Both the position numbers and the translations under genes were made by a program. Positions 1,139-7,529 of a stretch of 42,918 nt of DNA are shown here, piece after piece. The stretch's first letter is position 1, and every line of letters starts with the position of its first letter. The notes under the pieces are model-generated. The model saw only the letters and a program-made list of their open reading frames with translations, searched no databases and was not told the origin of the DNA. Where the stretch lies: assembly GCA_025726505.1 (NCBI GenBank), contig GCA_025726505.1_4340.1, one strand, 5' to 3'. The stretch is from a phage.

Positions 1139-1197
1139 GATGAATCCTCCAGGTGCGTATTAAGTATGCAGTAACTGGAGGATAGCACGGTTAGGAA

Positions 1198-1638
1198 TTA
1201 TCCTAATAGTTGTTTGGTAATAATATTGCCGCCGGTGTTGGTGTCGAACTTCGATGCAACGACTACGCCACCATGTGCTGTACTACCTAAATACATAGCA
1301 GCCAGCGCATAAGGCGCGCCGGAACCTACAGCGGCAAAGCCGTCTGCAACCGCAATAACCGAACTAAGGGCACAATCCCATGATTTATAAAATGCGACTT
1401 TATACACCTTTTCTGCGTCTTTCATGTACACCAGGGCTTCGAAATCGAAGTCATAATGTCTGGGCTGTAGGATATACGGGCAGTCTATAAGCATAGTGCC
1501 AACTCCGGCGTCACCCGCTACCCCAATAGCAACAAATTCGTTCTCGTATATCTTTGTGTCTGTGTTGTAGTAGTTACTTCCGCACACAACACGGGTGTCG
1601 CAGGCCATTGTCTTTCCATCAAATGCAATAGTAGTCAT
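1198..1638 (-). CDS. HslV/proteasome-beta-like N-terminal-nucleophile hydrolase (putative protease)
   Basis: 146-aa product begins MTTIAFDG (Thr right after Met) and contains AVGSGAPYALAA, matching the HslV pattern MTTIVSV...IGSGGPYAQAA recalled from E. coli; ATG 1638 with GGAG RBS; ATGA overlap with upstream gene. Confidence 0.55.
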   Translation of the reverse strand: MTTIAFDGKTMACDTRVVCGSNYYNTDTKIYENEFVAIGVAGDAGVGTMLIDCPYILQPRHYDFDFEALVYMKDAEKVYKVAFYKSWDCALSSVIAVADGFAAVGSGAPYALAAMYLGSTAHGGVVVASKFDTNTGGNIITKQLLG

Positions 1639-1973
1639 TTATGTCTCCAGATGTATTGTCGTCTCTGTGGTTTAGTCGGGATATCTTCATATCCCAGCGA
1701 TTTCCAGTAATTAAATAGTCGATTAGCGATAGCTGCACGTTCCTGTGTTTTGAACTCACCGAGGTTCACGGCCTTCCCGTTCTGGAATCCACAGGCGCGG
1801 ACCGCTTTGCGTCTGGCCTGAATCTCGGGGTACAGTGCATTACGGCGTCGCTTATGAATGCGGGTCTTCGCTCTCGGTGACAGCGGCGCAAGGCCGCTTC
1901 GTTTCAGGATGTCAGTTGCGAGGCTTATATTCCGAGAATCTCGCGGGCCATTTCTTCTGTAACTTTCGAACAA
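1635..1973 (-). CDS. Hypothetical Arg/Lys-rich protein (possible nucleic-acid binding)
   Basis: 112-aa basic ORF; only in-frame start is TTG at 1973, 49 nt inside the upstream gene; stop overlaps the HslV-like start. Confidence 0.4.
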   Translation of the reverse strand: MFESYRRNGPRDSRNISLATDILKRSGLAPLSPRAKTRIHKRRRNALYPEIQARRKAVRACGFQNGKAVNLGEFKTQERAAIANRLFNYWKSLGYEDIPTKPQRRQYIWRHK

Positions 1974-4387: not shown

Positions 4388-4634
4388 GAGAATAGTTACG
4401 TTGCCGTTGTGATTCTTCTGAGAAGGTTGTGCCTTTATTCTTATTACTTGGTAACTAAAGGGCAGGCCTTAAGCCTGCCCAATAATCGTTACATTTTTAC
4501 GGTTGCGAATCTACGGCACTTTAAGAAAATCAGATACTTAAGAGATATGCTGCCGATGAGAATAGAGCTTGCCCAGGGCAACCGGAGATACTAAGGAAGG
4601 AAAGTTACAATAATTCGAATGTTCAGTAAACTTT

Positions 4635-4678
4635 CGCTTAACACTTTGCTTGCGCTGCGCGCAGCTGCGTTTTAAGCG
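4635..4678. repeat. Nested inverted repeat in divergent control region
   Basis: CGCTTAA (4635-4641) pairs with TTAAGCG (4672-4678), enclosing perfect 12-bp palindrome GCTGCGCGCAGC (4654-4665). Confidence 0.6.
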
Positions 4679-4767
4679 GTTTTACAAGGTGAACAGGAAT
4701 CAAAGTAACTAAGATATAGAAGCACCTTAAACGAAGATTTTCATAATGTCAATAGGTGCGATTATGT

Positions 4768-4796
4768 TTGATTTCCCATTATTCTCAATGTATACT
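4768..4796 (+). promoter_or_regulatory. Sigma70-like early rightward promoter
   Basis: TTGATT (4768-4773), 17-nt spacer, TATACT (4791-4796), about 30 nt upstream of the first rightward ORF. Confidence 0.45.
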
Positions 4797-4828
4797 CTGT
4801 TTCGTTAACTGATGATGAGGGTTTGAGA

Positions 4829-5288: not shown

Positions 5289-7529
5289 ATGTCCGATGTA
5301 ATTTTATCCTACTCGTGGTCCCGTCGCAACGCGCGGGCAGAGAAAAAGGATATAAACGTCAGTACCACACACACGGCAACACTGGACGACCTGAAAGAGT
5401 TAATCCAGCCGCTCGATGCCGTTCGTCGCGGAATTGACCCGAAGACCGCGCCTGGCTATATCACCGCCGCGTGCGATTCTACGCACAGCACCGTAAAAGA
5501 CCCGGAAACCGGTGACTTTAAACAAGCGCGTAAAGGCTTTTTCTATCGCTGTGATGCGTCTGTAAGCAAATCGTCGCTGGCGTATCTGGACTTCGACAGC
5601 GCAACACCGGAAGAGTATCAGGAAGCGGTGCGCCTGGTTAAGCGCAGCCGCCGGGCGATGTGCCTCTACACCACGGCATCACATACCGAAGAGTCACCGC
5701 GCTTTCGCGTCGTTATGCCACTGGCCTGCCCGGTTGAAGGCGGCGACATCATCCGTGTTCGTCATGGATTGCTCGAGCACTTCTTCAACGGCATGGGCGC
5801 CGACCGCAGCGGGTTCACTCTGTCACAGCCAATGTACCTGCCGCCGGTAGGCTCTACCGTTATCTGGTCTCGCCGCAACGACCTGATTGACCCGGATGAA
5901 TTACTGGAAGGCATCCCCGCCGTTGACGTTAGCAGCGCATCGGATTACCAGATACCGGAAGAGCTGCGCACTGCGTTTACTGATGCGTTTGAGGCACTGG
6001 CGTTCGAGTACGGCGGTGTTATGACGCCCCGCGGACTGAAAATGTCAGCTACGCCGGAACACGCAGAAAACTACAGCGACCCGACGCCACGCCCGGACGA
6101 CTTCCTGTTGTGCTTCCCACGCGAAGGATATGAAGCGCCGAACGTAACCATGATTCACGACACCGACATTACGGCAACCGAAGGCATGTCACCGAAAGAG
6201 GTGTGGAAGTATGCGTGCGATGCGACTGGTCTGCCGTTCAGTGAAGTCGCTGAGGCAATCGGATGGGGCGCGCGTGAATCTGTTTCGTGTAGCCTGGACG
6301 ACCTGGAAGACGATGAGGACTCAGAGGAGGACGAGCTACCGGAACCGGTAAAGGCTGATTTCGTCGTTGAAGGGTACATGCCGTCGGATTGTATATGGGA
6401 TATTGTCGGGGAATCTGGCACGTACAAATCATTCTATACGCTGGGGATGATGTACCTGAGCGCCGCCGGGTACCGGTTTGCGGGGGCAGACACCCAGCGA
6501 TGCTACCACTTCTATATCGACGGCGAGGGTGGCGCAGCCACACGTACACGTATTGACGCGCTCGCGGCTAAATACGGCGTGGAAGGTAAAGATTATGTAC
6601 ATGTCGTCGATATGGGTGAAGTCGGCAAACTTAAAAGCCTGATTAAGCTAATGCGCGAAACTGCTGGCGGCGAGCCAATCGGCATGGTTGCATTCGACAC
6701 CCTTAACCAGACGCTGGCCCTGACGATTGATAAGTTCGACGAGAACAGTTCATCAACAGCAATCGGTATGGGTAAAGTCATCGCCATCCTGAAAGAAGTG
6801 CGTGACGCGACTAAGGCCGCGGTGGGCGTCGTCCACCATACACCGAAGGGTGGAAAGAAAGCCCGTGGTAGTGGCGCGCTGTATGCGGGTGTTGACGTGG
6901 AACTGACAATCGAACGCGCGACCGACCGCCAGATAAACGTATACCACTCGAAATTCAAGCACGGACCTCAACAGAAGACGGTTGGCATGGTGCTGGAGTC
7001 AGTACAGTTCCGTGAAGCCCCACCGCCGAAAGAATACCGTGCTGTTGAGTTCCTCGGTAGCACGGAGGAATACGGCACAATCGTAAACCTCGACCTGCCA
7101 GAACCACATAAGGCACTTGTGTTGATGCCGTGGGGCTTCGAGCCGTTCAAAACTGACGAGGAGAAAGAGCGCGAAGAAGGGCTGACAAAGGAAGGTAAAG
7201 AAAACGTAAAGAATGCTGTGAAACGTGGGAAGGATGAAGGGCGTAAGGAATCAATACTCGCCGCGCTGGAAGACCTGCAACAGTCAGACGACACCGGACG
7301 AGGGTTTACACAACGGCAGATAGTGGCTAATTCTGGCGACCACGCCATCACCAACCATCATCTCGAGAAGATGCTGAAAGACGGCGAGTTGATGTTAGGG
7401 TGCGATGTTAACGGTGAAGTTATGCCTGGCACATACCGGATACCTGAAAAGATGGGCGACAGATTAAGGCCGAAGACAATATACGAACCGAATGAAATGC
7501 TGGTGGTGACAGAGGAGGATTTGGAATAG
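5289..7529 (+). CDS. Bifunctional primase-helicase (AEP/PrimPol-like N-terminus + P-loop NTPase C-terminus)
   Basis: N-terminal DxD (LAYLDFDSA) and SxH (TASHTEESPRF) primase-like motifs; acidic linker DDLEDDEDSEEDE; Walker A-like VGESGTYKS and Walker B-like MVAFDTL; start moved to ATG 5289 with GAAGGAG RBS (track GTG 5247). Confidence 0.8.
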   Translation: MSDVILSYSWSRRNARAEKKDINVSTTHTATLDDLKELIQPLDAVRRGIDPKTAPGYITAACDSTHSTVKDPETGDFKQARKGFFYRCDASVSKSSLAYLDFDSATPEEYQEAVRLVKRSRRAMCLYTTASHTEESPRFRVVMPLACPVEGGDIIRVRHGLLEHFFNGMGADRSGFTLSQPMYLPPVGSTVIWSRRNDLIDPDELLEGIPAVDVSSASDYQIPEELRTAFTDAFEALAFEYGGVMTPRGLKMSATPEHAENYSDPTPRPDDFLLCFPREGYEAPNVTMIHDTDITATEGMSPKEVWKYACDATGLPFSEVAEAIGWGARESVSCSLDDLEDDEDSEEDELPEPVKADFVVEGYMPSDCIWDIVGESGTYKSFYTLGMMYLSAAGYRFAGADTQRCYHFYIDGEGGAATRTRIDALAAKYGVEGKDYVHVVDMGEVGKLKSLIKLMRETAGGEPIGMVAFDTLNQTLALTIDKFDENSSSTAIGMGKVIAILKEVRDATKAAVGVVHHTPKGGKKARGSGALYAGVDVELTIERATDRQINVYHSKFKHGPQQKTVGMVLESVQFREAPPPKEYRAVEFLGSTEEYGTIVNLDLPEPHKALVLMPWGFEPFKTDEEKEREEGLTKEGKENVKNAVKRGKDEGRKESILAALEDLQQSDDTGRGFTQRQIVANSGDHAITNHHLEKMLKDGELMLGCDVNGEVMPGTYRIPEKMGDRLRPKTIYEPNEMLVVTEEDLE

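Follow-up and report, generated by a model that had tools for sequence, protein, structure and literature searches.

In HslV and the proteasome the H1/H2 layer faces the ATPase (HslU in the case of HslV) or the alpha ring; H3/H4 of HslV form the ring-ring face, and Lys28 of HslV is a contact for the HslU C-terminus. The related BPH reportedly assembles as double heptameric rings. A phage relative, PPH, was described by Fuchs, Alva and Lupas in 2021 (PMC8665760) as a protein of ~140 residues without H2 and without S12/H5, which occurs in Caudovirales and was grouped with BPH and HslV. The literature searched assigns no function to phage-encoded proteasome homologues and holds no experimental work on any PPH or phage HslV-like protein; what it offers on them is the bioinformatic analysis of 2021 plus routine genome notes, and the JSS1 paper is about a T7-like phage and host hslV.

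We analyzed a phage genome of 42,918 nt (GCA_025726505.1, contig GCA_025726505.1_4340.1), the whole of which is referred to here as the window. It is a Kagunavirus-like (Guernseyvirinae) coliphage genome with ~89-91% nucleotide identity to UTEC10, BUCT825, Bas73 and others. Its minus strand harbors, at 1198-1638, a gene for a 146-aa homolog of the N-terminal-threonine hydrolases of the proteasome/HslV superfamily, which, judged from sequence profiles and a predicted structure, is a small enzyme homolog of this superfamily and not an HslV orthologue. The gene belongs to the already described PPH family and is not of a new kind. The novelty implied by a first-pass annotation of this DNA, made from the letters alone, does not stand, as the family is published (PMC8665760) and many records of related phages already list the gene as "peptidase HslV family", "protease" or "ATP-dependent protease". 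We consider it likely that PPH is a stand-alone, ATPase-independent N-terminal-threonine peptidase encoded by an accessory gene, forming no module with the neighboring basic protein and unneeded for lysis or assembly, a reading in which catalysis, oligomeric state, HslU independence and any target are all things we infer. Four alternatives are weighed below in our order of likelihood, namely an HslU-bound mimic of HslV, a non-protease, a lysis or morphogenesis protease and a dead remnant.

Family profiles and a predicted structure point to a PPH-type fold

The ORF product reads MTTIAFDGKTMACDTR...AAVGSGAPYALAAM...FDTNTGGNIITKQLLG, with MTTIAFDG at its start and FDTNTGG...LLG in its C-terminal part. 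Direct reading of the sequence bore out the features from which the first-pass annotation had started, i.e. a 146-aa ORF beginning MTTIAFDG, a threonine right after the initiator methionine, as in E. coli HslV, and a GSGAPYA segment. Against PHROG the protein matched phrog_1040 ("peptidase HslV family") with an E-value of 8.6e-33. On its own it scored below the cut-off of Pfam Proteasome PF00227 (E 0.13, 12.3 bits; cut-off 22.4) and only weakly against single PDB sequences, which leaves family profiles and the predicted structure as the basis of the fold assignment. PF00227 is matched individually by 51 of 85 diverse family members (best 1.4e-10), and a profile of these 85 homologues retrieved HslV (1.3e-12), proteasome beta5 (4.5e-11) and BPH (1e-9) from the PDB. 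In the profile alignment, the T. maritima HslV chain segment AAIGSGGPYALAA stands against AAVGSGAPYALAA in PPH.

AlphaFold (AF2) modeling with the 85 diverse homologues added yielded a pLDDT of 94.4 and a pTM of 0.89, compared with a pLDDT of 37 when the alignment held just 37 close relatives. Foldseek ranked BPH (5ovs, 1.9e-8), HslV and beta subunits at the top for this model, which displays the Ntn beta-sandwich with an N-terminal nucleophile that defines membership in the proteasome/T1 superfamily. Between S6 and S7 the model holds a five-residue H1 (46-50) followed by an ordered loop (51-65) and no H2, and the chain ends after S11 (139-143), without an S12/H5 extension. The proteasome/HslV-like Ntn hydrolase fold proposed initially is thus confirmed by the phrog_1040 match, the family profile searched against the PDB and the model, and structure prediction, one of the checks put forward with that proposal, recovered the fold. 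The protein also has a complete Thr1/Asp17/Lys33/Gly47/Ser129/Asp166/Ser169-type site.

An exhaustive profile search, counted in 50%-identity clusters, returned 303 clusters at E ≤1e-10 and 4,387 at E ≤0.001, the latter number probably taking in HslV-like relatives too. Among the matches listed, nearly all family members are 135-160 aa long and aligned from residue 1, and an MTT start is present in 116 of the 149 family representatives retrieved. Together with the phrog_1040 E-value of 8.6e-33 and a pairwise dN/dS of 0.13-0.21 among four Kagunavirus PPH copies, this start places the match to the proteasome/HslV type far beyond chance. The Guernseyvirinae PPH clade forms a single 50%-identity cluster, with the next full-length match found at E 2e-17 and ~30-37% identity. 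Searches of viral proteomes identified the proteasome-like fold in 44 BFVD clusters at E ≤1e-3. Phage-encoded proteasome homologues are widespread.

The protein shares with the published family (PMC8665760; representative WP_042125023.1) a length of ~140 residues (146 here), occurrence in tailed phages of Proteobacteria, absence of a propeptide, the Thr1/Asp17/Lys33/Gly47 core, the lack of H2 and S12/H5 and greatest proximity to BPH and HslV, the assignment being made by these defining features. As for occurrence, the window is Kagunavirus-like, and the contigs with distant homologues are phage-like or the homologues are part of prophages. The Guernseyvirinae clade differs from other PPH in being well separated and in having its H1 cut to five residues plus an ordered loop. 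Unlike PPH, BPH (PDB 5ovs, 5ovu) comprises ~185-200 aa with full H1/H2 helices. Compared with HslV (ClpQ), PPH is ~30 residues shorter, lacks H2 and an adjacent hslU and is a dispensable phage gene, and in contrast to 20S proteasome beta subunits (PF00227, MEROPS T1) it has neither a propeptide nor an alpha-ring partner.

The ATPase-facing layer is nearly absent from the model

With H1 reduced to five residues and H2 missing, the H1/H2 layer is almost gone from the model, which weakens the docking to a host HslU that had been contemplated initially. That PPH replaces HslV on host HslU (ClpY), and that the resulting hybrid ATP-dependent protease gives host proteolysis a new direction, is an unlikely explanation: most of the HslU-facing layer is lacking, the protein falls below the cut-offs of the HslV equivalog models TIGR03692 (13.2 bits; cut-off 157.75) and NF003964 (12.9 bits; cut-off 137), the column of HslV Lys28 is occupied by Tyr24 and varies across the family, and BPH, the best structural match, is not known to have an ATPase partner. 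Loss of H2 and of almost all of H1, the ATPase-facing layer, instead leads us to expect a self-contained, ATPase-independent peptidase, and the retained beta-sandwich core and H3/H4 face suggest a ring-forming protein like HslV and BPH. It counts against a self-contained enzyme that the face of the sandwich devoid of H1/H2 may need a partner, which could be a host or a phage protein.

The statement that no HslU-like ATPase is encoded nearby could be upheld for the ten window ORFs scanned, long ORFs matching structural genes lying outside the scan, and for the annotation of the related Bas73 genome; neither contains a Clp/HslU-type ATPase. The sole AAA-type match in the ten ORFs was AAA_25, in the replicative helicase-primase.

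Predicted active-site residues are conserved

All codons of the predicted active site are read from the minus strand. Thr2 (ACT, 1633-1635) directly follows Met1 and is the predicted N-terminal nucleophile (Thr1) once Met1 is removed. Asp14 (1597-1599) and Lys29 (1552-1554) correspond to Asp17 and Lys33 of the proteasome/HslV type; the profile alignment places them opposite D17 and K33 of T. maritima HslV. Gly39 (1522-1524), part of a GVAG motif that stands against GFAG in HslV, is the counterpart of the oxyanion-hole Gly47 (HslV Gly45); Gly39 and Gly42 align with the GFAG glycines of T. maritima HslV, including the oxyanion-hole position. The GSGAPYA segment (residues 105-111; 1306-1326) compares with GSGGPYA of HslV, its Ser106 corresponding to proteasome Ser129 and HslV Ser124. 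Toward the C-terminus, D132-T-N-T135-G136 (within FDTNTGG; 1231-1245) resembles the proteasome Asp166/Ser169/Gly170 motif, an equivalence of D132, T135 and G136 that is read from the motif, not from superposition.

The catalytic positions T2, D14, K29, G39, S106, D132 and T135 are all present, and invariant in an alignment of 37 close relatives (A1). K29, G105 and G107 never vary across 85 diverse family members (A2), at least 90% of which conserve T2, D14, S106, D132 and G136, with D14 nearly invariant. The conserved catalytic positions and the low dN/dS show purifying selection, consistent with the presumed catalysis. We envisage that host methionine aminopeptidase would take off Met1, leaving Thr2 as the N-terminal nucleophile, that Asp14 and Lys29 would complete the triad with Gly39 as the oxyanion hole, and that Ser106, Asp132 and Thr135 would stabilize the site as in proteasome beta subunits. 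PPH would then probably form a homo-oligomeric ring acting on peptides, on unfolded proteins or on one particular target.

Residues conserved in this way could also belong to a ligase or a non-peptide amidase, a point that counts against the peptidase reading. We hold it improbable that the Thr1 site serves ligation or transpeptidation, as in connectase, or the hydrolysis of a non-protein amide.

PPH alleles among Kagunaviruses, at 74-88% amino acid identity (dS 0.5-1.0), have diverged far more than the adjacent basic protein (92-97%). Differences between PPH alleles cluster at residues 45-60 (H1/loop) and 115-125 (H3-H4 loop).

PPH is an accessory gene and its basic neighbor is an incidental one

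PPH is the last gene of a leftward array of small genes, and two holin genes (830-1138 and 565-873) and the endolysin gene (99-638) follow directly downstream on the same minus strand. At its 5' end, the start codon (ATG, 1636-1638) overlaps with the stop codon (TGA, 1635-1637) of an upstream gene for a basic protein, and the ATGA junction (1635-1638, minus strand) described in the first-pass annotation, as read from the sequence, is real; the same 4-nt overlap of the two genes is found in Bas73, NTEC3 and CR01. The upstream ORF is Arg/Lys-rich as described, but its length of 112 aa results from extending the ORF mechanically to TTG 1973; as a conserved gene (phrog_9632; 1635-1928, minus strand) it encodes 97 aa (MSLATDILK...). 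The basic protein matches phrog_9632 with E 7.3e-55 over residues 17-112 of the mechanical ORF and is 94% identical to a 97-aa Bas73 CDS. Its usual ATG start is ATA in the window (1926-1928), at a position where Met is present in 11 of 11 relatives aligned. ATAA (1925-1928, minus strand) has likewise taken the place of an ATGA junction with the upstream ORF 1925-2164, and the only in-frame alternative start, TTG 1973, has a badly placed Shine-Dalgarno sequence. The basic gene may be poorly translated in this genome, or the ATA may be a sequencing error.

Functional coupling of PPH to the basic protein, as implied initially, is not supported by their distribution. By tblastn, 494 phage records contain the basic gene and only 322 contain PPH, and among Kagunavirus-type records ~111 harbor the basic protein (≥80% identity) compared with 33 that harbor PPH. 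In the three PPH-less Kagunaviruses inspected (BUCT789, Bas74 and JSSK01), the basic gene is kept and lies next to the holin gene; in Bas74 and JSSK01 the order is basic gene, a 75-nt gap and holin. In blastn comparison of BUCT789 with the window, homology stops at 1208 and restarts at 1637, in line with a clean loss of the PPH ORF: the missing segment (1209-1636, minus strand) covers approximately the whole ORF and spares its last 11 nt. Since the basic gene is commoner than PPH, which is absent at the same junction in the three relatives inspected, we regard the pairing as incidental. A 34%-identical orthologue of the basic protein precedes PPH in Jerseyvirus SE2 as well. Because PPH has this position in both Jerseyvirus and Kagunavirus and a 3' remnant of it persists in BUCT789, the simplest reading would be that their ancestor was PPH-positive and that the gene was lost later.

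The PPH-less relatives inspected, all of them plaque-forming isolates, have this holin-holin-endolysin cassette too. PPH is an accessory, dispensable gene in this phage group, missing from the majority of close relatives. Bas73 is the only BASEL phage among the PPH-positive records, and Bas74 was confirmed to be without PPH. According to the BASEL paper, Bas70-76 "behave very similarly" against the immunity systems tested, and a PPH phenotype is not evident in this comparison. A link between PPH and the sensitivity of BASEL Kagunaviruses to K-12 cryptic prophages was considered and rejected, as only Bas73 of Bas70-73 is listed as PPH-positive; the BASEL paper ascribes this phenotype to O-antigen glycosylation and tailspikes. 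PADLOC returned no defense-system match for PPH or the basic protein.

The SE2 orthologue of the basic protein (gp19; L003, 4624-4995) gave a below-threshold match to Pfam AP2 (E 0.16) over a K.(V/I)NLGEF...RA..A..L segment. An AP2-type DNA-binding identity receives no support from the Kagunavirus protein or from the family profile, and the latter has no PDB match.

Distant PPH genes lack a recurring partner

Ten distant PPH genes on long contigs were inspected for their genomic context. They are located beside a polyvalent Acb1/ART giant protein, among small ORFs, after NinG, in a connector/tail region, between small terminase and portal genes, between portal and capsid genes, or in a NeuB-type sugar cluster. 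No recurring partner gene was found across the ten loci, the flanks differing in every case; two similarly sized downstream ORFs, examined as a candidate shared partner, proved mutually unrelated. The 4-nt start/stop overlap is a generic feature: in six of the ten loci PPH directly adjoins the end of some unrelated gene (Phage_stabilise, a 72-aa uncharacterised ORF, an acetyltransferase, small terminase, portal and a DnaT-like gene). An AAA ATPase is encoded within two genes of PPH in one of the ten.

Location bears on the idea that PPH is a lysis or morphogenesis protease that processes a holin, an antiholin, a spanin or a head protein. In Kagunavirus as well as Jerseyvirus, PPH lies directly 5' of the holin genes, and six of the ten distant genes are in or beside packaging or structural modules, one of them between portal and capsid. 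By a rough estimate, however, six of ten is near what chance would give when stretches of 8-10 kb are taken from ~40-kb genomes, each locus has different flanking genes, and the three PPH-less relatives retain their lysis cassette and were isolated as plaque-forming phages, so that we judge such a role very unlikely. Least probable is a catalytically dead remnant or decoy kept as selfish cargo, to which the frequent loss of PPH and its low allelic identity (74-88%, versus 92-97% for the basic protein) would lend themselves, but which is at odds with catalytic positions conserved in diverse members and a dN/dS of 0.13-0.21.

Several of the distant loci display individual features. In L016 (2355-6849), PPH comes right after a T7-type portal gene, ahead of a putative scaffold gene and a capsid gene; the slot between portal and capsid is the usual place of a prohead protease. 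In L012 (1-5385), PPH lies between an acetyltransferase and a NeuB-like synthase gene with 4-nt overlaps on both sides, in a cluster that resembles nonulosonic-acid biosynthesis (CTP transferase, epimerase, methyltransferase). A 62-kb metagenomic contig (L013) encodes, at 5353-6606 and two genes 3' of PPH, a BCS1-type AAA ATPase (BCS1_N, AAA, AAA_lid_BCS1).

Possible targets of the proposed stand-alone peptidase

Going beyond a stand-alone peptidase as such, a more specific and doubtful proposal is that PPH acts as a minimal, unfoldase-independent "phage proteasome" that cuts one host protein, e.g. an immunity or stress factor, or that it is packaged and injected with the DNA, a variant drawn from how often distant phages have PPH next to packaging and structural genes. 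If a specific host target exists, an arms race with it would account for the patchy presence of PPH and its unusually diverged alleles within one genus. A protease this small and without an ATPase would be an unusual route to remodeling host proteins and a compact scaffold for Ntn catalysis. Close public coliphages with and without PPH, such as Bas73 and Bas74 of the BASEL collection, constitute a natural experiment, making the function directly testable.

Putative regulatory elements around the small-gene array

The co-directional array in which PPH and the lysis genes lie begins at a divergent promoter-like region near 4760-4790, which comprises a leftward element at 4788-4761 (minus strand) and a rightward one at 4768-4796 (plus strand) within the interval 4460-4800. 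Between 4460 and the endolysin gene, a terminator-like site was not predicted on the minus strand, and in relatives the same strand runs on into terminase and structural genes. The "early operon" to which the gene had been assigned is thus unproven, given a single co-directional array with the lysis cassette, no predicted terminator and a strand that runs on. The text of the K1B4 Kagunavirus transcriptome paper, whose time classes are coarse, does not mention the PPH gene. Just 3' of the leftward promoter-like element and ahead of the small-gene array lies a strong terminator-like hairpin (4480-4460, minus strand), which may act as an attenuator.

Downstream of PPH, a 9-bp stem (…UCCUCCAG / CUGGAGGA…; 1144-1183, minus strand) pairs the GGAGGA Shine-Dalgarno sequence of the first holin gene (start 1138). 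Its RNA minimum free energy is -18.4 kcal/mol (z -3.7), with none of 200 shuffles as stable, and its sequence is conserved in the PPH-less BUCT789. This stem over the Shine-Dalgarno sequence may control holin translation.
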